This document shows positions 1 through 10,686 of a DNA stretch of 15,916 nt, piece by piece. Within the stretch, counting starts at the first letter, position 1. The number at the start of each line of letters is the position of its first letter. A model generated the notes under the pieces. The model searched no databases. It had not been told where the DNA came from and saw only the letters and a program-made list of their open reading frames with translations. Both the position numbers and the translations under genes were made by a program. The stretch comes from Promethearchaeota archaeon (GTDB lineage Archaea > Asgardarchaeota > Lokiarchaeia > Sigyniarchaeales > SOKP01), in contig JAGXNO010000063.1 of the NCBI GenBank assembly GCA_019894975.1, forward strand, positions 1 to 15,916. Reading direction: 5' to 3'.

Positions 1-994
1 ATTCAATAGCAGACAAATTCTTTATTATTACTCCACTTTGAGCCATATTTAATACTCCCGTGATGAGTACCAAAGTTGTTAAAAGGGGTAAATTTATAGG
101 AAGAACATTTGTACCTCTTAAAATAGAGCTGACTAATGCGTTACTTACTTCAGAGGGAACAAAATTTCCCGCATAAGCAAGAGTAACTAACTTATAGAAA
201 ATTAACATGTATAAATTAATAAGCACAATTGCCCCAAGTATATAACCTAGCCTATTTAGTTTTCGGGTCAAGGGAATATCTTCAATACTTCCCATCTCAT
301 TTAAGGTAGTGGATATTTTTCCTATTTCGGTATTCACGCCTGTACCTGTTATTAAGGCTTTTGCTCTTCCTGTGTCAATGTACGTTCCCATAAATACCAT
401 ATTAAATTGTTTTTGAATAGGTAGAGTTATTTTTTCTATGTTCTTATTCGATTTTTCTACAGGTTCACTCTCTCCTGTTAGAGGTGCTTCATCTACAGTT
501 AAATTTACCTGATGAATTATTCTACCATCTGCGGGGATTTTATCTCCTTGTTCTAATAATACTATATCTCCTGGTACTAATTCTCTATTAGGAATCTCGA
601 ATTGATTCCCATCTCTTATTACTGTAGCTTTTAAAGCCGATATCTGTTTTAAGGATTCTAAGGCCTTTTGAGCTCTAAATTGTTGAATAATGACAGTTGT
701 TGAATTTATTATAACCACAGTGAATGTAATAACTGTTTCCCCGGGAGAACCTAAAATAACAACAGCTATTCCGGTAATAAGAAGAATTATTATTAAAAAA
801 TTAAATATTGGAGCAAGATATATTTTCCATATAGATATTTTAATTTTAGGAAGTTCATTATAACCCGAATTTAGATGTCTCTGTTCTAGCTCAGAAGATT
901 TTAATCCTCGATCTATATCAGTGCTAAAATATTCAACTAAATCATCGATTGAATTATGAAAATAAGTTTTACTAGAACTTTTACTTGTTGACAT
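1..994 (-). CDS. P-type ATPase, P2-like scaffold with atypical M4 motif; N-terminal ~331 aa, runs off the left edge
   Basis: Manual translation from ATG at 994-992: MSTSKSSSKTYFHNSIDDLVEYFSTDIDRGLKSSELEQRHLNSGYNELP... Contains M1/M2, A-domain motifs LVPGDIVLLEQGDKIPADGR and DEAPLTGESEPVEK (TGES at 467-478), NMVFMGT, TGVNTEIGKI, M3, M4 TNVLPINLPLLTT and VIIKNLSAIE, which normally precedes DKTGT (expected just outside the window). Confidence 0.93.
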   Translation of the reverse strand, partial: MSTSKSSSKTYFHNSIDDLVEYFSTDIDRGLKSSELEQRHLNSGYNELPKIKISIWKIYLAPIFNFLIIILLITGIAVVILGSPGETVITFTVVIINSTTVIIQQFRAQKALESLKQISALKATVIRDGNQFEIPNRELVPGDIVLLEQGDKIPADGRIIHQVNLTVDEAPLTGESEPVEKSNKNIEKITLPIQKQFNMVFMGTYIDTGRAKALITGTGVNTEIGKISTTLNEMGSIEDIPLTRKLNRLGYILGAIVLINLYMLIFYKLVTLAYAGNFVPSEVSNALVSSILRGTNVLPINLPLLTTLVLITGVLNMAQSGVIIKNLSAIE

Positions 995-1102: not shown

Positions 1103-2053
1103 TTAGAGTATAAATTCTTGAGGATCTCCCAAGATTTCTTTTAGTTCATGAAATTTCTTTCTTATAGTCGTGCTTGAGAATTTACTATACTTTTCTATAA
1201 GACTTTGTGTAAAAATCTTTCTATTCTCTAAGCTTTGTCCAATATAATAAATTAATCCGGCAGTAAAGGCTTTATAGTTTAAGTTTTGAATATGTGAATA
1301 TGATATTAATTGAAGAATTTCATCTGCTACCAGTTGCATGTTGATTTTAGTTTTATCAAATTCCGATTTGGAGGTAAAAAATTCTGAAATTTCTTCATAG
1401 GGTATACTGTTTAGATCCTTTTGAAAAACGATTTTTATTCTATTTTTAATTTCTTTTTCAATTATTGATGTATCTGAAGTATCTGTCTTTTTCTCCAGCA
1501 TCTTCTCAATTCTTTTTACTTTTACCATAGCATTTGATAACATTTTTTTATTGATTTTATGGCCCAATTCCTTAGAAACTGCAATGAATTCTTCGATCCG
1601 GGTATTAGTAGTGTCTTTTATTTCCAACCAAATGATAGCAAGAAAAATTATAATCATATTTTGATAGTTATGTCTGTGATATTTATTATAGCGTAAATAG
1701 CGGTCTTTAATATCGCGATATCTAACATTATCAATATTTAATCCAATACCATGGCCTTTCAATAAATCAATTGTCTTTTTTTGCTCTGTAAAGTCAGACT
1801 GATAATCTCGGAACCATTTTTTAAGTGTTTTAATTCGTTCATATTTCTCTCGAATAACAGGATCTTGCAAAGCTTTTGAATCGCTAATCCGAATACGTCT
1901 TTCATAATCTCTTTGTGTTTCTGAATAATATTCCCCGTATGATTCTAAATATTCAGAGGCTAGTTTTTCTTCTAAAATTAAACCACAATCTTGACAAACT
2001 AACTCCCCACCTTCTTGCATTACATTTTTATGGAGGCAAATTGAGTTTTCCAT
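1103..2053 (-). CDS. Divergent TFIIB/TFB-like protein (zinc ribbon plus cyclin-fold C-terminus)
   Basis: N-terminal CLH-x11-CQDCGLIL zinc ribbon. The C-terminal AFTAGLIYYIG...TQSLIEKYSKFSSTTIRKKFHELKE aligns by eye with the TFB second cyclin repeat/HTH (LAAACIYIAA...TQSKVADVAKITEVTLRSRAKQIK in the neighbouring TFB). 316 aa. Confidence 0.75.
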   Translation of the reverse strand: MENSICLHKNVMQEGGELVCQDCGLILEEKLASEYLESYGEYYSETQRDYERRIRISDSKALQDPVIREKYERIKTLKKWFRDYQSDFTEQKKTIDLLKGHGIGLNIDNVRYRDIKDRYLRYNKYHRHNYQNMIIIFLAIIWLEIKDTTNTRIEEFIAVSKELGHKINKKMLSNAMVKVKRIEKMLEKKTDTSDTSIIEKEIKNRIKIVFQKDLNSIPYEEISEFFTSKSEFDKTKINMQLVADEILQLISYSHIQNLNYKAFTAGLIYYIGQSLENRKIFTQSLIEKYSKFSSTTIRKKFHELKEILGDPQEFIL

Positions 2054-2852: not shown

Positions 2853-3779
2853 TTATATAAGCTTACTTTTAATTTGTTTAGCACGACTTCGAAGCGTTAC
2901 TTCGGTAATTTTCGCCACATCCGCAACTTTTGATTGGGTCTTCCGCACGCTATTATTTTTAGCCGCAATGTAAATACATGCCGCAGCTAAACCCTTTGGA
3001 TCTTTTCCTGTTCGTTTTAATCCATTCCTAGATGCATCTTTTAGCATATTAATAGCTTCTTTCTGAATCTGAATAGGAAGGTCTAACTCATTACCAAAGC
3101 GAAATACTAAACTTTCAGCTGTGATTGGTTGATATCTAAGGTTTAATTCGGGTAGTACTTCCCTTATTATCATCGCAAGACTTCGATGAACAGTTCGTCT
3201 TGGTGTTAACGAAGCTTCGCAAACTTCATCTAATAAACGGGGAAAATCATGAACACGAATAGCTGCATATAAAGAGCCCGCTATGAATCCATTTATTGAT
3301 CTTCCCATGGTTAGTTTTTTCTTTGCGACTATACTATATATTTTCCAAGAAGTTTCAGCAATATATTCGGGAATATTTAGTTTAGAAGTAAGCATCTTTA
3401 GTTTTGGTTTTGCTTCCCAAAAATTCCTCTCTATACTTGAGATTAAAGAATTTTGAATTTTAGAAAGACGGGAAAAAAGGGCTTGTTCTTTCGCACCAAT
3501 ACTCTTCCCTTTGCTATCTGTCTTCGTGTTGGGTAGCATAGTACGAGGTCCAAAGTCTCTCCAGCGAGGTTCTGTCCTACGACGGTTCTGTATCTCTTCG
3601 ACTGTGTACGCTCTCCTTTCATTTCCTACAAAAGTTCTTTCAAAGATCAGTCCACAGTTTAAACATACTTTGTTACCATCTCGAGCCTCAACAAATGGAT
3701 TGTTACAACAATAAGTATGGGCAGGGATGTTCTCTTCGATTTTTTCCTCAACATAACGATTACGATATTGTTCGTTCAT
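2853..3779 (-). CDS. tfb: Transcription initiation factor IIB (TFB)
   Basis: Zinc ribbon CC-x13-CLNCG, ERRAY B-reader-like segment, first cyclin repeat with GRSINGFIAGSLYAAIR...PRLLDEV, second repeat with GKDPKGLAAACIYIAA and HTH TQSKVADVAKITEVTLRSR. Confidence 0.95.
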   Translation of the reverse strand: MNEQYRNRYVEEKIEENIPAHTYCCNNPFVEARDGNKVCLNCGLIFERTFVGNERRAYTVEEIQNRRRTEPRWRDFGPRTMLPNTKTDSKGKSIGAKEQALFSRLSKIQNSLISSIERNFWEAKPKLKMLTSKLNIPEYIAETSWKIYSIVAKKKLTMGRSINGFIAGSLYAAIRVHDFPRLLDEVCEASLTPRRTVHRSLAMIIREVLPELNLRYQPITAESLVFRFGNELDLPIQIQKEAINMLKDASRNGLKRTGKDPKGLAAACIYIAAKNNSVRKTQSKVADVAKITEVTLRSRAKQIKSKLI

Positions 3780-4117: not shown

Positions 4118-5833
4118 ATGAGAATTGCTCGAATAAATGTTGAATTTGAAGAAACGCATAATGAAGAAATAACCTCTGATTCAAAATTCTTTTTACTTGG
4201 TGGCCGAGGATTAAGTTCTCAAATCATTCTTGATGAGGTTCCACCATTATGTGATCCTTTAGGTGATGAAAATAAACTAATTTTAGCTAATGGATTACTT
4301 ACAGGTAGCCCATTCCCTTGTTCTGCTCGCACATCCATTGGTGCTAAGAGTCCCTTGACTAATGGGATAAAAGAGGCGAATGTTGGAGGACGCCCTTCCA
4401 TAATGTTAGCATCTCACGGAATTAGAGCCTTAGTTTTAGAAGGAAAATCGTCAGAATTAAAATTTATAGTTATTGATAAAGAGGGTATAAAATTCGAATC
4501 GGCAGGGAATTATATTGGAGTTGGAAATTATGATCTTCATAGGGAGTTGTATAAAAAATTTGGATACAAGATAGGGATTTACTCAATTGGACCTGCTGGA
4601 GAACATTTATTGAAGGCTGCTACTGTTGCTACGAACGATTTAGAAGGATATCCAAGTCGACACGCGGCACGAGGTGGTTTAGGTGCTGTTATGGGTTCCA
4701 AACGAATTAAAGCAATTATAATAGTACCTTTAAAAAACTCACAAGTCAAAATTTTTAATATACAAGCGTTTCGAGAAGTTTCAAAACCATTTGCTAAAAA
4801 CCTCGCTGAGTCAAAGAAAAATTTCTCGATTTATGGAACAGCAAACATGGTCAGGGCTATGAGTGCTTATGGAGGACTGCCTACGAAGAATTTTAGGATG
4901 GGTTCATATGATAAAGCGATGGATATCTCAGGAGAGAAACTTCACGAACTTGTCATTGCGAGAAATGGTAGAAAACGTGTTCCATGCAGTCCTACCTGTG
5001 TTATTAAGTGCTCCAATATAATCACTGATGAGAAAGGTGAACATATAACATCTAGTTTAGAATATGAAACCATTTTCGCAAATGGCTCAAATTTACTAAT
5101 TAATAATCTTGATGATGTCGCACGGATTGATCATTTATGCGATGATAACGGGATCGATACAATTGAATTTGGAGTGACTATGGGCGTTGCAATGGATGCT
5201 GAAAAAGTTAAATGGGGTGACTCTCATAAAGTATTTGAAATATTAAAGGAAATTAAGAAAGGTTCAACAATTGGGAAGCTTTACGGGAATGGAGTTTGTC
5301 ATCTTGGAGAGAAAATTGGCTTTGAGAGAATTCCCCACATTAAAGGCCAAGGTATTTCAGGTTATGATCCACGGGTTTTTAAGGCTATGAGTATAACTTA
5401 CACCACAACTCCCATGGGTGCTGATCATACTGCCGGTGCGGCTATAGCAGGAAGGGTTGCAAATCAAGAAAAAGATTATGGAGAATTAACTGAGAATAAA
5501 GGTAAACTTGAATTATCCTATGAACTACAGTTATATACAACAATACTGGATTCTTTAGGATGTTGCTATTTTATAGGTCCTAGTTATGAGAATATGGAAA
5601 TTATAAAAGGAGCATTGAACGCAATGTACAACTTAGAATTAACCCTAACGGACGTAATAGATATTGGAAAGCGCATATTAAAATCTGAAATAGATTTTAA
5701 TGAAAAAGCAGGGATACCCCAAGATCTGAATGATGTACCCGAATTTTTTAGAACCGAATCTTCTAAACCAACTGGATTGAAATTTACATTTACAGAAGCA
5801 GAATTAAAACAATTCTGGAAAAGATTAAGTTAA
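4118..5833 (+). CDS. aor: Aldehyde:ferredoxin oxidoreductase family protein (W/Mo-pterin, 4Fe-4S)
   Basis: LLGGRGL, AKSPLTNGIKEANVGG, IGPAGE, AARGGLGAVMGSKRIKAI, Cys cluster CSPTCVIKC, EYET, CDDNGIDTI, GYDPR, GADH and DSLGCCYF are all AOR-family motifs. Substrate cannot be determined. Confidence 0.93.
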   Translation: MRIARINVEFEETHNEEITSDSKFFLLGGRGLSSQIILDEVPPLCDPLGDENKLILANGLLTGSPFPCSARTSIGAKSPLTNGIKEANVGGRPSIMLASHGIRALVLEGKSSELKFIVIDKEGIKFESAGNYIGVGNYDLHRELYKKFGYKIGIYSIGPAGEHLLKAATVATNDLEGYPSRHAARGGLGAVMGSKRIKAIIIVPLKNSQVKIFNIQAFREVSKPFAKNLAESKKNFSIYGTANMVRAMSAYGGLPTKNFRMGSYDKAMDISGEKLHELVIARNGRKRVPCSPTCVIKCSNIITDEKGEHITSSLEYETIFANGSNLLINNLDDVARIDHLCDDNGIDTIEFGVTMGVAMDAEKVKWGDSHKVFEILKEIKKGSTIGKLYGNGVCHLGEKIGFERIPHIKGQGISGYDPRVFKAMSITYTTTPMGADHTAGAAIAGRVANQEKDYGELTENKGKLELSYELQLYTTILDSLGCCYFIGPSYENMEIIKGALNAMYNLELTLTDVIDIGKRILKSEIDFNEKAGIPQDLNDVPEFFRTESSKPTGLKFTFTEAELKQFWKRLS

Positions 5834-5870: not shown

Positions 5871-6740
5871 ATGAGAATTGGAGCACACATGAGTGTTTCA
5901 GGTGGTAAGCATTTAGCCTTTGAAAGCGGTAAAGAGTTAGGATGCGAGGCAATCCAAGTATTTGTAAGAAATGTACGGGGTTGGACTTCTGGATCTCTAA
6001 AAGAAGAAGAAATTCAACACTTCATAGAGAAGAAAGAAGAATTCAAGGATGATATCTGGCCTGTTATTTCTCATAACAGTTATTTAGTCAATTTAGCAAG
6101 CTTAGATAAGGAGAAATTAGAAAAATCATATAATGCTATGGTAGACGAGCTTACTAAAGTGGATCAATTATCGATAGAATATGATAATATACACCCTGGA
6201 GTCATCCCAATTAGTGATAAGAAGGAAATCACAAAAATAGAAGCACTAACTCAAATAGCTGCACAGTTAAACAAGCTGATGGAAGCAACAGGATCATCAA
6301 ATGTTATAATATTACTTGAAACCACTGCCGGACAAGGTAAAGGTTTAGGGAATAAATTTCACCACTTTAAAACTATACTAGATAAAATTCAAACTAAAAA
6401 ACGGATTGGAATTTGTTTTGATACTGCTCATTCCTTCGCCGCAGGATATGATTTTACTGTAAAAAAAAGATATGAAGAGATGTGGAATGAATTTGATGAT
6501 ATAATTGGTTTGAAGTACTTATTTGCATTTCACTTAAACGATACAGATAAAGAATGTGGTTCAAGAGTAGATAGACATATCCACATTGGGCAAGGAAAAA
6601 TTGGTAAAGAACCTTTTAGATTCTTTATCAATGATGAACGATTTAAAGATATGCCTGGAATATTAGAGACCCCTAAAGGGAAAGATATGAAAGAAGATGT
6701 TATGAATTTAAAAATACTCAAATCATTGAGGAAAAATTGA
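5871..6740 (+). CDS. nfo: Endonuclease IV (AP endonuclease 2 family)
   Basis: IGAHMSVSGG, HNSYLVNLAS, IHPG, LETTAGQG, CFDTAHSFAAGYD, HLND, DRHIHIGQG and ILETP Zn-ligand motifs; 37 nt after the aor stop, with GAGG upstream. Confidence 0.97.
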   Translation: MRIGAHMSVSGGKHLAFESGKELGCEAIQVFVRNVRGWTSGSLKEEEIQHFIEKKEEFKDDIWPVISHNSYLVNLASLDKEKLEKSYNAMVDELTKVDQLSIEYDNIHPGVIPISDKKEITKIEALTQIAAQLNKLMEATGSSNVIILLETTAGQGKGLGNKFHHFKTILDKIQTKKRIGICFDTAHSFAAGYDFTVKKRYEEMWNEFDDIIGLKYLFAFHLNDTDKECGSRVDRHIHIGQGKIGKEPFRFFINDERFKDMPGILETPKGKDMKEDVMNLKILKSLRKN

Positions 6741-6741
6741 A

Positions 6742-7146
6742 TTATTCTACATCAAACCATACAGGAGCCTTATTAGATGGGCTTCCATTGTAATTTACAG
6801 TAATTTCTTCTCCTTTAGAAATATCTCGAATTGCTATATATTCAATTGACTTACTTTTATAATTATACCTATATTTAGCATTAGGTTTATAAGAATGGTT
6901 TATGAGTTGACTAATACTAAAAGCGATTGCCTGATCATATTCTCCTTTACATTTAGGATCATCCCATTCAAAAGAATAATTAGATAGGATTGTATCTTCG
7001 ATTAAATCCCAATCAGTATTAGAAATAAGGACGATTTGAGCAATGTCTATTGTTGCTCCTTTTGCTATATTCTTTTTTGCAAAAAGACCTTTTCCTTTTT
7101 TTATTGATATAAATTTAACTTCTAATAGATTATTCGTTGAATTCAC
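6742..7146 (-). CDS. SET-domain protein-lysine methyltransferase, copy B
   Basis: KGKGLFA (motif I), LINHSYKPNA (motif III), AIRDISKGEEITVNY (motif IV); no pre- or post-SET Cys cluster; GTG start. Confidence 0.92.
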   Translation of the reverse strand: MNSTNNLLEVKFISIKKGKGLFAKKNIAKGATIDIAQIVLISNTDWDLIEDTILSNYSFEWDDPKCKGEYDQAIAFSISQLINHSYKPNAKYRYNYKSKSIEYIAIRDISKGEEITVNYNGSPSNKAPVWFDVE

Positions 7147-7258: not shown

Positions 7259-7663
7259 TTATTCTACTTCAAACCACATAGGGCTGTGATCTTCGACCAG
7301 ACCATTATAGTTGACTGTTAGTTCATCTCCTTGAGCAATATCTCTAATAGCCGAGAATTCTATTGATTTATCTTTATAATCATAAAGATATTTTAGATTT
7401 GGTTGATAAGAATGATTAATAAATTGACTTATACTTAGAGTTATAGCATTTTTATATTCAGGCTTATGCTTGGGGTCTTCCCAAATATAGCAGTAGTTAT
7501 ATAACACTGTTTTGCTAACTTTCTCGTACTCTTTATTAGGGATAGGGATTACATATGCTACATCAACGATGGTACCTTTTTTTATATGTTTCTTAGCAAT
7601 AGCCCCTTTTCCTTTTTTTTCAGAAATTGGTTTTACATCGATATATTCGTGCAATATTATCAC
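7259..7663 (-). CDS. SET-domain protein-lysine methyltransferase, copy A
   Basis: KGKGAIA, FINHSYQPNL, AIRDIAQGDELTVNY. Start is GTG 7663 or TTG three codons later, with AGGTGA as its RBS. Confidence 0.92.
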   Translation of the reverse strand: MIILHEYIDVKPISEKKGKGAIAKKHIKKGTIVDVAYVIPIPNKEYEKVSKTVLYNYCYIWEDPKHKPEYKNAITLSISQFINHSYQPNLKYLYDYKDKSIEFSAIRDIAQGDELTVNYNGLVEDHSPMWFEVE

Positions 7664-8295: not shown

Positions 8296-9561
8296 TTATT
8301 CACTAAATTTTTCGGGATTAACACATTTTCTCCACTCTAAAACTGTTTCTTTTGGACCTAAACCTATAAGTAGATCTCCCGTTTGAAAAACAAAATCAGG
8401 ATTAAAACGGTAAATCCATTTAGCTTCTCTTTTCAAAGCAATAATATGGAACCCGCGTTTATAACGACTATCTTGTAATTCAATGTAAGTTTTTTCTTTA
8501 AAATAAGAATCTTCTGAAAGGGTTTCTCTCACAACTATTTCTGATGTTTCTCGAATAGCTTGTTGCAGAATACTATGGGGCTCAAATCCTTTAATTATGT
8601 TTTCTGCTATATGTGTTGCGGAATCTGCAATGAGTTCACAAGAAAAAACAATCCGCATAAGACCTGTTAGATCTCTTGGTGTTTCTACTAATCGCGCTAA
8701 ATCAAGAAGATCTTTTTCAAAAGCTAAGTTGAGACCATCCATTAATTCTTCCATTTCTAATATATCTTCAGCAAGTTCGTTATTATTAAGGAAAATAGCA
8801 GCTAAGGCTAATTCAATCATGGTTTCTGATATATCAGTAATTAAAATGTAATTTTTTTGGAGTTCCTCGACTTTTTCGCAAATATCTGTGTTTTCAAAAT
8901 CAATCATCAAATCAGTCTTTTCTTCACCGATGTCAAATGAGAAAGGTTCAGGATCATTACAAAGGATTTTAAGATCTATTATAGGTTGTATCTCTCCTTT
9001 TACAATTAAGATATCCTTTAACACAATCTTCTCATTTTTTTCAAATAACCATTCATCTCCTCTACGTATTGCAATTAAGTCGACTCCGTGCTTAGATCTA
9101 AAGTGAATATCGAGTCTTATTTGTCCTATAAAACTACATTCTCGGTTTACTACTATTTTAACGATAGGTTCAGGTACAAAACTAATATCACTAAACAACT
9201 GCACGAAATAAGATATGTCTTTATTGATATAAACAATTCGTGCTATATCACTCAATGCATCAGAGATTTTATCTATTGAATAACCCATAACCACTATGGG
9301 TTCGAGTTTTTTTGCGCCTTCTTGACCTCTAGGATGAGCTTGAATTATTTGAAAATTCAGTAAAAATGTGAGTTCATGGATTCTTTGCTCCATTTTATAA
9401 GCTTCATCAGCTAAATCTTTACTGCCGAATTTAATGGCACTATAAGCCAAATCAATCATGAAATCTATATTCTGTTTCATCTCCCTAATAATATCTTTTA
9501 GGGAAATAGGCTTATATTTAAATTTTTTACTCCGTTTTGACATTTTGTTGTGTTCACTCAT
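8296..9561 (-). CDS. Tandem (PhoU-like helical domain + TrkA-C/RCK_C) x2 regulatory protein
   Basis: Unit 1: FMIDLAYSA...DKISDALSDIA + GVDLIAIRRGDEW...DILIVKG. Unit 2: TMIELALAA...ELIADSATHIA + GFHIIALKREAKW...GDLLIGLG. No TM segments. Confidence 0.85.
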   Translation of the reverse strand: MSEHNKMSKRSKKFKYKPISLKDIIREMKQNIDFMIDLAYSAIKFGSKDLADEAYKMEQRIHELTFLLNFQIIQAHPRGQEGAKKLEPIVVMGYSIDKISDALSDIARIVYINKDISYFVQLFSDISFVPEPIVKIVVNRECSFIGQIRLDIHFRSKHGVDLIAIRRGDEWLFEKNEKIVLKDILIVKGEIQPIIDLKILCNDPEPFSFDIGEEKTDLMIDFENTDICEKVEELQKNYILITDISETMIELALAAIFLNNNELAEDILEMEELMDGLNLAFEKDLLDLARLVETPRDLTGLMRIVFSCELIADSATHIAENIIKGFEPHSILQQAIRETSEIVVRETLSEDSYFKEKTYIELQDSRYKRGFHIIALKREAKWIYRFNPDFVFQTGDLLIGLGPKETVLEWRKCVNPEKFSE

Positions 9562-9580
9562 TTTGCATATTTATTAGATT

Positions 9581-10132
9581 TTATATAAATATTGTTATAA
9601 ATAAAATAATGAATAAAGGGGTTAGAAAATCTGCTAGCGATGTAATAAAGGGTATAAGAAAATTATTTGGATCTGTACCACGTTTGAAGAGATAAATTGC
9701 ACTTAAAAATAATAAAATAAACATCATAAAGAATAATATTATAATTGTAAGAATCATGATTAAAATAATTAAAAATGGGTTTACCAATTTTACTCCAGAA
9801 ATTATTCCAACAGAAAATCCTGCAATTATTAAAAAACCCAAGCTTAATAAGAGAGTAAAAAAGAGACCGTAAAAGTCTTCCTTTAGTCTTTCAGATCTCT
9901 GGATTTTAGGTAAGATTGTACCTATATAAAGATGAGTGGTTAATCTTGATACCAAGACTGTCGAGATATCTCCTATCAGAGAGTTTAACGCAGGTAATAT
10001 TAATAGGAATATAGGGATGGTATAGAGAATCTCATCGTTAGAAGAAAGTAAAGTACCAGAAAATAGACCAAATATTGAGGATAAGATTACTATTATTATT
10101 GACTCCTTGAAAATTTTGATAAAATATTTCAT
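9581..10132 (-). CDS. MgtE-family integral membrane domain protein B (divalent cation transporter)
   Basis: About 5 TM; LPALNSLIGD (PX6GN-like) and DPNNFLIPFITSLAD motifs. The likely start is ATG 10132, overlapping the upstream stop (TAATG), rather than 10171. Confidence 0.85.
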   Translation of the reverse strand: MKYFIKIFKESIIIVILSSIFGLFSGTLLSSNDEILYTIPIFLLILPALNSLIGDISTVLVSRLTTHLYIGTILPKIQRSERLKEDFYGLFFTLLLSLGFLIIAGFSVGIISGVKLVNPFLIILIMILTIIILFFMMFILLFLSAIYLFKRGTDPNNFLIPFITSLADFLTPLFIILFITIFI

Positions 10133-10686
10133 TAAGGCACCCCCAACATTAGTAATGTTAAGAAGAAGCAAAATACAGTAAAAAAGTCGTCAATCGCAGT
10201 CATAACAGGATTTACAACATTATTTGGGTTCAGACCTCTTTTAAAAGCGAAATAGTTTAACCCTGTTGAACAAGGAATTGATATGCAAAGAGTAAGAATT
10301 ATTGATACTGATGGTATTGCAAAGTACTGCACAACTGTGAGTTCCGTCAAATTGAAAAACAAAAAATTCAACAAAATAGAGAAAATACCAATAATAACTG
10401 CTGTTATCATTGCTAACAGGAAAGTAGCAAGAGTATTTTCGATCCAAGACCTTTTGGAAAAATTTCCAATAATGAGATCGCGAGAAGTCCTTGCAATAAA
10501 AGGACCACTTAGATTTCCTCTTAATGAAAGGAGTGCTGGAATGATTAGAATAAGGGCAATAAAGGAATCAAAAGGGATAATTAAAAGAGAAAGAATAATG
10601 CCCGCTAAAATATCTCCAATAATAGAAACGGATTCTGATGGGAAGGTTTCCTTAATAATTTTACCTTTAGTATCTTGCATTTCCAT
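10132..10686 (-). CDS. MgtE-family integral membrane domain protein A (divalent cation transporter)
   Basis: About 5 TM; IPALLSLRGN (PX6GN) and NPNNVVNPVMTAIDD motifs; no N or CBS domains. Confidence 0.87.
   Translation of the reverse strand: MEMQDTKGKIIKETFPSESVSIIGDILAGIILSLLIIPFDSFIALILIIPALLSLRGNLSGPFIARTSRDLIIGNFSKRSWIENTLATFLLAMITAVIIGIFSILLNFLFFNLTELTVVQYFAIPSVSIILTLCISIPCSTGLNYFAFKRGLNPNNVVNPVMTAIDDFFTVFCFFLTLLMLGVP

Follow-up and report, generated by a model that had tools for sequence, protein, structure and literature searches.

Which cargo does a P-type ATPase move once the residues by which such pumps are classified have been exchanged? The question is raised by the gene at the beginning of contig JAGXNO010000063.1 (C135) of a Promethearchaeota archaeon, whose first 15,916 bases form the window analysed here (assembly GCA_019894975.1: 3.9 Mb, 31.6% GC, 175 contigs). 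The initial annotation, made from the letters of the window, described a truncated Asgard-type ATPase with a P2 scaffold and a flippase-like fourth membrane helix (M4), and proposed a transporter of lipids or organic substrates, either a relative of the P4 precursor or a convergent form. We find that the gene belongs to a large and old clade of pumps, near-universal in several Asgard lineages, whose members are annotated as Ca2+ pumps although they are unable to form the Ca2+ site. The residues conserved in this clade suggest, with moderate likelihood, a P2-derived pump for one small cation other than Ca2+.

The minus-strand frame at 2-994 is open without a stop from an ATG at 992-994 and translates into 331 residues, until it is cut by the start of the contig 11 residues before the phosphorylation motif DKTGT. 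The motifs named in the initial annotation are present where it placed them in the translation, and the gene is truncated as it stated. The gene and its features are as follows:

2-994, minus strand: N-terminal part of the ATPase gene (copy A), 331 residues with the start codon at 992-994, of a P-type ATPase of 955 aa; it spans the N-terminal domain, M1, M2, the A domain, M3 and M4
767-958, minus strand: Cation_ATPase_N domain (PF00690), residues 13-76, including the start of M1 (Pfam E 3.9e-11)
38-637, minus strand: E1-E2_ATPase domain (PF00122), residues 120-319, comprising the A domain, M3 and M4 (Pfam E 2.4e-40)
797-829, minus strand: M1 segment WKIYLAPIFNF, residues 56-66, with K, A, P, F and N at the positions of SERCA E51, E55, Q56, E58 and D59
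659-685, minus strand: cytoplasmic end of M2, QQFRAQKAL, residues 104-112, with Gln at both Glu of the canonical QExxAE
467-478, minus strand: dephosphorylation motif TGES of the A domain, residues 173-176
86-112, minus strand: M4 motif TNVLPINLP, residues 295-303, with PINLP at 86-100; Ile300 corresponds to SERCA E309 and Asn301 to G310

The final 386 residues of copy A lie at the end of another contig of the same assembly, C7 (5,369 bp; 4210-5367, minus strand). A metagenomic protein of 955 aa, P0002, is 99% identical to the window fragment (residues 1-331) and 100% identical to the C7 fragment (residues 570-955). Because P0002 matches both at 99-100%, the start of C135 and the end of C7 are parts of one gene: window 2-994 holds the first third of an intact gene for a P-type ATPase, split by an assembly gap between the two contigs. 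The ∼714 bp for residues 332-569, which include DKTGT and the N domain, were not found on any contig of the genome assembly, where the sole match to these residues is a paralogue (42%). The full gene, the recovery of which the initial annotation had recommended, was in this way obtained as its two ends together with P0002 for the middle, and P0002 served as the full-length stand-in for copy A. The catalytic machinery of P0002 is complete, with TGES, DKTGT (in DKTGTIT), TGD (in TGDH) and GDGxND (GDGIND); TGDH and GDGIND can also be read directly in the C7 fragment. By extension from P0002, the DKTGT phosphorylation site of copy A appears to be intact, as it is in the paralogue.

This paralogue, copy B, is complete (965 aa; C7:607-3483, minus strand), lies downstream of copy A on the same strand and is 42-44% identical to it. 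Its motifs, PINIP in M4, YICINIFEG in M5, a His in M6 and FFCES in M8, correspond to the same pocket as in copy A. The two copies would derive from a duplication within the taxonomic family of the window, with the pocket kept in both. The fragmentation of copy A and the unassembled state of its DKTGT-bearing middle raise the alternative of an ATPase that does not pump (a sensor, a scaffold or a decaying gene), or of a motif artefact. We regard this as very improbable, given the intact full-length orthologues without stops on many contigs and genomes, the conservation of every catalytic motif across a deep clade and the intact paralogue in the same genome.

The exchange of the canonical PEGLP for PINLP is shared widely among homologues. 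Among close homologues of the fragment (67-99% identical), PINLP occurs in 116 of 120 and PFNLP in the other four, so that the homologues do not carry the PEGLP by which the initial annotation would have recognised a chance change. A private substitution or a sequencing error is rejected, since the signature is common to the homologues and to the paralogue of the same genome. A search of 1.84 billion cluster representatives recovered ∼38 clusters at 50% identity with the same residue combination, below which the hit list changes abruptly to canonical pumps with QExxAE, PEGLP and NLVTDGLPA. For residue counts we used a family set of 180 sequences, selected by a residue other than Glu at position 300 and by His at position 757, and a canonical set of 109 sequences.

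The consensus of M4 in the family set is P-(I/V/F/L/W)-N-x-P. Position 300, that of SERCA E309, is Ile in 91% of the family and V, F, L or W in the remainder; Glu occurs there in 0/180 family members, as a consequence of the selection, and in 109/109 canonical sequences. Similarly, position 757 (SERCA D800) is His in 180/180, which defines the set, and Asp in 109/109 canonical pumps. Further changes accompany these two: Asn301 (SERCA G310) is found in 98% of the family, with Gly in the canonical set; Gln105 at the end of M2 in 97%, versus Glu in 98% of canonical sequences; the family-specific Pro62 of M1 in 98%, where 95% of canonical sequences have Gln; and Phe or Tyr at position 753 (SERCA N796) in 87%, where canonical sequences have Asn. 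With Val at the position of SERCA T799 in P0002, the M6 positions N796, T799 and D800 read F, V and H. The mean number of acidic residues is 0.04 in the family versus 0.93 in the canonical set for the first part of M1, which is rich in aromatics (W56, Y59, F64, F66), and 0.04 versus 2.0 for the end of M2. The loss of the M4 Glu and of the acids at the end of M2, initially noted for the one gene, is conserved across the family.

Other residues of the canonical site are retained. Asn724 (SERCA N768) and Glu727 (SERCA E771) are present in 98% and 100% of the family, with the same residues in the canonical set, and M5, reading FICLNIMEA, has the N..E of P2 pumps. In M8, Glu856 (SERCA E908; Gln or Glu in canonical sequences) is conserved in 99% and is followed in 87% by Thr or Ser at position 857, where canonical sequences mostly have Leu or Met. 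The A-domain motif TGES predominates among the family representatives. Of the cation ligands in M5, M6 and M8 singled out for inspection by the initial annotation, those of M5 and M8 are intact; that of M6 is not, its Asp being replaced by His. The changes in the membrane part of the family are coordinated: SERCA site II is dismantled, the acidic cytoplasmic funnel of M1 and M2 is neutralised and the site-I residues are retained, leaving a conserved polar cluster (N301, N724, E727, H757, E856, T857) beside a site II filled by hydrophobic residues. With site II lost and His in place of the M6 Asp, the usual Ca2+/Na+/K+ site cannot form.

The P2-type scaffold proposed for the gene is borne out by the ranking of hidden Markov models (HMMs), by trees, by structural searches and by the nearest solved proteins. 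Against the NCBIfam models, P0002 scores 447 bits for IIA2, 445 for IIA1, 396 for IID, 391 for IIB, 374 for IIC, 326 for IIIA, 318 for IIIB, 228 for V, 220 for IB and 100 for IV (P4). It remains below the cut-off of every P-type model scored: 445 versus 703 bits for TIGR01116 and 447 versus 798 for TIGR01522, both P2A; 326 versus 615 for the P3A model TIGR01647, the second-best model for the N-terminal fragment; and 228 versus 618 for the P5 model TIGR01657. The M4 helix has one Pro before the Ile, not the PP(E/A)LP of P5 pumps. Canonical PEGLP controls taken from the same hit list rank the models in the same order and reach 670-823 bits on the IIA models. The closest solved protein by sequence is LMCA1 (E 1.7e-121), followed by SPCA1 and SERCA.

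We inferred trees from 74 sequences: 32 of the family, 34 canonical P2A-like pumps, five Asgard P3A pumps, E. coli MgtA and, as outgroup, the two P1B ATPases of this genome. The family is monophyletic (SH-aLRT 100) and sister to the canonical PEGLP P2A pumps, the union of both being supported at 99 with P3A, MgtA and P1B outside. After removal of 89 columns around the signature motifs, the supports are 97 for the family, 94 for the canonical group and 82 for the union. The trees were built under LG+G4 with a short search, from a canonical sample skewed to near-query sequences, and eukaryotic P2, P4, P5 and P6 sequences were not included. On these trees the family is a monophyletic clade beside the prokaryotic P2A Ca2+-ATPases, of the P2 class in a broad sense, the eukaryotic P2B-D pumps being unsampled; it is not nested within the sampled P2A pumps, the placement that the initial annotation had named as contrary to a P4 ancestry.

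More prokaryotic P-type families are expected, and P4 pumps are considered unique to eukaryotes (Palmgren 2023 review, PMC10654040). The same review describes CtpE of Mycobacterium (P6), another prokaryotic P2-like clade without the M6 Asp, proposed as a new family on that feature and on phylogeny (PMC10654040); by its description, CtpE retains PEGL, with Ile in M6 at the position of the Asp, whereas the Asgard family loses PEGL and has His. The Asgard clade is apparently absent from the literature found under P-type ATPase and Asgard lineage names, where no description of the family was seen, and neither 'PINLP' nor 'PINIP' occurs in any paper found.

The AF2 model of P0002, built from an alignment of 100 sequences (mean predicted local confidence, pLDDT, 85.6; predicted template modelling score, pTM, 0.80), has ten predicted membrane helices, of which M4 loses its helical form at 297-300 and M6 is interrupted at His757, both as seen in known pumps. 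Among the top 50 Foldseek matches there are only P2 pumps (SPCA1, SERCA, LMCA1, Na,K- and H,K-ATPase), and the highest TM-scores, 0.77-0.84, are to E2P-type states. Exhaustive structural alignment with VIA-align gives Z-scores of 32.8 for PfATP4, 30.1 for SERCA2, 28.9 for MgtA, 28.5 for AHA2 and 28.4 for LMCA1; among P4 structures, Neo1 scores 27.2, Drs2 25.8 and ATP8A1 25.6. These scores separate P2, P3 and P4 poorly (33 to 24), with conformational state dominating, and were not used for class membership; to judge from the model, the fold alone is not enough to separate P-type classes. Within the structural alignments, P2 pumps are 26-31% identical to the model and P4 pumps 16-19%.

The overall likeness is to the P2A pumps (Listeria LMCA1, PDB 9euq/6zhh; SPCA1/PMR1; SERCA), with which the family shares the domain order, Cation_ATPase_N, TGES, DKTGT, ten helices, the N..E of M5 and the Glu of M8, as well as its best sequence matches (E 1e-121 to 1e-99), best HMMs, best Foldseek matches and sister position in the trees. 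The differences are concentrated in the transport path: PINLP versus PEGLP in M4, F..VH versus N..TD in M6, QQ..AQ versus QE..AE at the end of M2, and an M1 with Pro62 and no acids, along with scores 250-350 bits under the equivalog cut-offs.

The initial annotation had read M4 as carrying both the Ile and the upstream Asn of P4 flippases in their spacing. Both are present in this gene and the Ile extends to most of the family. The Asn (N-x-x-P-I), on the other hand, is a feature of this gene and its close relatives: of the ∼38 representatives of the family at 50% identity only ∼6 have it, and basal subgroups retain the canonical AAIP, reading AAIPVNFP or AAIPWNFP. Since these subgroups lack it, the upstream Asn is derived and specific to a subclade. 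Nor is a hydrophobic residue after the M4 Pro a hallmark of P4 pumps, because it also occurs in P3A H+-ATPases (IPVALP in Asgard P3A pumps). The resemblance to the P4 flippases ATP8A1, Drs2 and Neo1 consists of this Ile (PISL versus PINL), the lack of the M4 Glu, fold Z-scores of 24-27 and, in this gene, the Asn three residues before the M4 Pro. P4 flippases have a conserved Lys in M5 (K873 of ATP8A2). The family differs from them in having TGES instead of DGET, N..E instead of the M5 Lys and an almost invariant Asn at the position of the Ser of PISL.

Profile searches give the P4 model no preference for the family. On TIGR01652 (cut-off 431), five family members score 89-142 bits (P0002 99.8) versus 95-105 for four ordinary PEGLP Ca2+ pumps. 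None of the 151 Asgard genomes holds a sequence above the cut-off of the P4 model or of the P5 model TIGR01657, and the best P4-model matches in these genomes (∼84 bits) are the P and N domains of these same family genes. A direct prokaryotic relative or precursor of the eukaryotic P4 lipid flippases would suit the Asgard host lineage, the N-x-x-P-I-x-L of this gene and an origin of P4 pumps that is still unknown (PMC10654040). The missing Asn of basal members, the grouping with P2A pumps, the P4-model scores equal to those of ordinary Ca2+ pumps and the empty Asgard genomes nevertheless make such a descent extremely improbable, and the specific P4 link of the initial annotation is not supported in view of the TGES motif, the N..E of M5 and the derived state of the Asn.

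If the family is a pump for one small cation other than Ca2+, it would run through a normal E1-E2 phosphoenzyme cycle and bind a single ion in a His/Glu/Glu/Asn pocket formed by His757, E727, E856 and N301. One candidate is H+, which could use a His-Glu relay; the neutral funnel and the hydrophobic M4 position would parallel P3A pumps. The P3A H+-ATPases (AHA2, Pma1) share with the family that the M4 Pro is followed by a hydrophobic residue (IPVALP or IPIAMP) and that a single protonatable residue occupies the M6 position of D800. They differ in this residue being Asp, in having an M5 Arg and QE in M2, where the family has His, N..E and QQ, and in forming a separate clade. The other candidate is a borderline divalent metal (Mn2+, Fe2+, Co2+, Ni2+ or Zn2+), for which the His and two carboxylates would make a ligand set. 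The sequence is compatible with either and would not separate H+ from metal as cargo.

Several points weigh against this assignment. The cargo is assigned from residues only, and neither an operon partner that is conserved nor a metal regulator or riboswitch gives a hint of the ion. The loss of the acidic entry funnel would be unexpected for a pump of metal cations and fits H+ or a non-ionic cargo equally well. Instead of forming a binding site, the buried His-Glu cluster might act as an internal counter-charge like the Lys of P4 pumps or R795 of LMCA1. Finally, the class placement comes from LG+G4 trees with a short search and no eukaryotic P2, P4, P5 or P6 sequences.

The main alternative is a non-cation transporter convergent with P4 and P5 pumps. 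Its neutralised M1, M2, M4 and M6 surface would offer a lipid head group a hydrophobic gate and groove, or accommodate an organic cation (a polyamine, for example) in an aromatic pocket, and the His-Glu cluster would be a built-in charge filling site I. The remodelled helices are those that line the P4 lipid path, the Ile after the M4 Pro equals that of PISL, every funnel acid is lost and M1 is rich in aromatics; the P4B pump Neo1 aligns to the model at Z 27.2, versus 28-33 for P2 pumps, and P4 and P5 pumps also neutralise the canonical cation site (Palmgren 2023, PMC10654040). We consider this reading possible but unlikely. The hydrophobic M4 residue is variable (I, V, F, L, W) and is a trait common to P3A proton pumps, TGES stands in place of DGET, a Lys is lacking in M5, the P4 HMM does not favour the family, and identity is lower to P4 than to P2 structures. 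E727 (100%), the M8 Glu (99%) and the set-defining His757 are ionisable and, being so constant, fit ligands better than filler. The search for CDC50 (PF03381) matched 0 of 151 Asgard genomes, and the same search, lacking a positive control, also matched no control genome; the CDC50 beta subunit is not needed by P4B pumps. The broader proposal, that a widespread Asgard P2-derived class exchanged the transport of inorganic cations for that of a membrane lipid or of some other amphipathic or organic cargo, seems doubtful to us. If true, it would provide a prokaryotic, independently evolved (or even ancestral) case of the change by which an ion pump became a giant-substrate pump, as in the origin of the eukaryotic P4 and P5 pumps.

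The taxonomic distribution agrees with the 'Asgard-type' label of the initial annotation. P0002 has matches at E<=1e-100 in 139 of the 151 sampled genomes of the phylum of the window, a count that includes canonical pumps. Inspected loci at or above ∼580 bits all carry the signature and those at or below ∼540 bits are canonical; by this score threshold, we estimate that ∼90 of the 151 Asgard genomes have a family member. The source names of all family members, basal ones included, are Asgard lineages: Promethearchaeota, Hod-, Thor-, Loki-, Hermod-, Odin- and Helarchaeota. In a scan of one genome per species, 79 of the 80 loci listed, from bacteria and other archaea, are non-family and nearly all have PEGLP or a close variant, the sole signature locus among them being on a Promethearchaeota contig. 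So far, in this non-exhaustive sample and by source names, the family is seen only in Asgard archaea. Genes like copy B are spread across many Asgard families. The copy A type (at least 56% identity) occurs only in the window's own taxonomic family, within which it usually lies directly upstream of copy B on the same strand (at least 16 genomes).

Bona fide P3A H+-ATPases (TIGR01647, 700-1077 bits; IPVALP in M4, LLNDA in M6) occur in 26 of the 151 sampled Asgard genomes, sometimes in several copies, and a second Asgard group scores ∼450-480 bits on TIGR01647, under the cut-off.

The P-type ATPases found in the genome of the window (95% complete, 8.6% estimated contamination) are two P1B pumps (C33, C120) and those of the two family genes. 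A canonical P2A (PEGLP Ca2+) pump, a P3A pump and KdpB were not found in it, and the family genes are the only P2/P3-type pumps that it was found to hold. The lack of a canonical P2A pump here would suit a family that still exports Ca2+ (or Ca2+/Mn2+), as annotated, through an unusual single site. The names given to the homologues by their sources are 'Ca2+-transporting ATPase' or 'cation-translocating P-type ATPase', a transportome survey lists Asgard homologues as putative Ca2+-ATPases (TC 3.A.3.2.21; PMC7997004), the best HMM and PDB matches are Ca2+ pumps, and Ca2+ uptake has been reported for CtpE of the P6 clade, which lacks the M6 Asp (PMC10654040). This alternative is improbable: the site II ligands E309, N796 and D800, which form the only site of LMCA1, are replaced in every family member, and the scores fall ∼250-350 bits under P2A equivalog cut-offs that canonical prokaryotic pumps reach or approach. 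Furthermore, many Asgard genomes also hold canonical PEGLP pumps, so the family is not simply their Ca2+ pump.

Identification of the cargo would correct the annotation of many Asgard metagenome-assembled genomes and would extend a thoroughly studied class of enzymes by a transport site of a new, His/Glu/Glu/Asn type. It would tell, too, if the archaea most closely related to eukaryotes were already putting P-type pumps to work on something beyond the usual ions. Orthologues of full length exist that could be expressed.

Across 15 Asgard loci of ∼19 kb from several families (14 distinct, the contig of L059 being that of L167), only the pump itself recurs in all, and Rfam searches of the window and seven loci recovered tRNAs only, with no metal riboswitch. 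The upstream neighbour of copy A is the following gene:

1103-2053, minus strand: divergent TFB-like protein of 316 aa with a Zn ribbon

A divergent TFB-like gene with 47-61% identity, which recurs solely within the window's taxonomic family, occurs near copy A in the three other loci of that family searched (L059/L167, L168, L169), directly upstream in two and at an upstream distance of ∼3 kb in the third. Its product probably does not belong to the pump. In the window, the gene for a bona fide TFIIB-repeat protein lies close by, at 2853-3779 on the minus strand.

The remainder of the window contains several further genes. A PhoU and TrkA_C protein (8296-9561, minus strand) follows two short overlapping open reading frames with MgtE domains (9581-10171 and 10132-10686, minus strand); together (8296-10686) they may represent a divalent-cation channel, split or of two subunits, and its regulatory partner. 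Two adjacent genes of 134 aa with SET domains stand in tandem at 6742-7146 and 7259-7663 on the minus strand. An aldehyde:ferredoxin oxidoreductase (AFOR_N and AFOR_C; 4118-5833, plus strand) is followed by a xylose-isomerase-like TIM-barrel gene at 5871-6740.

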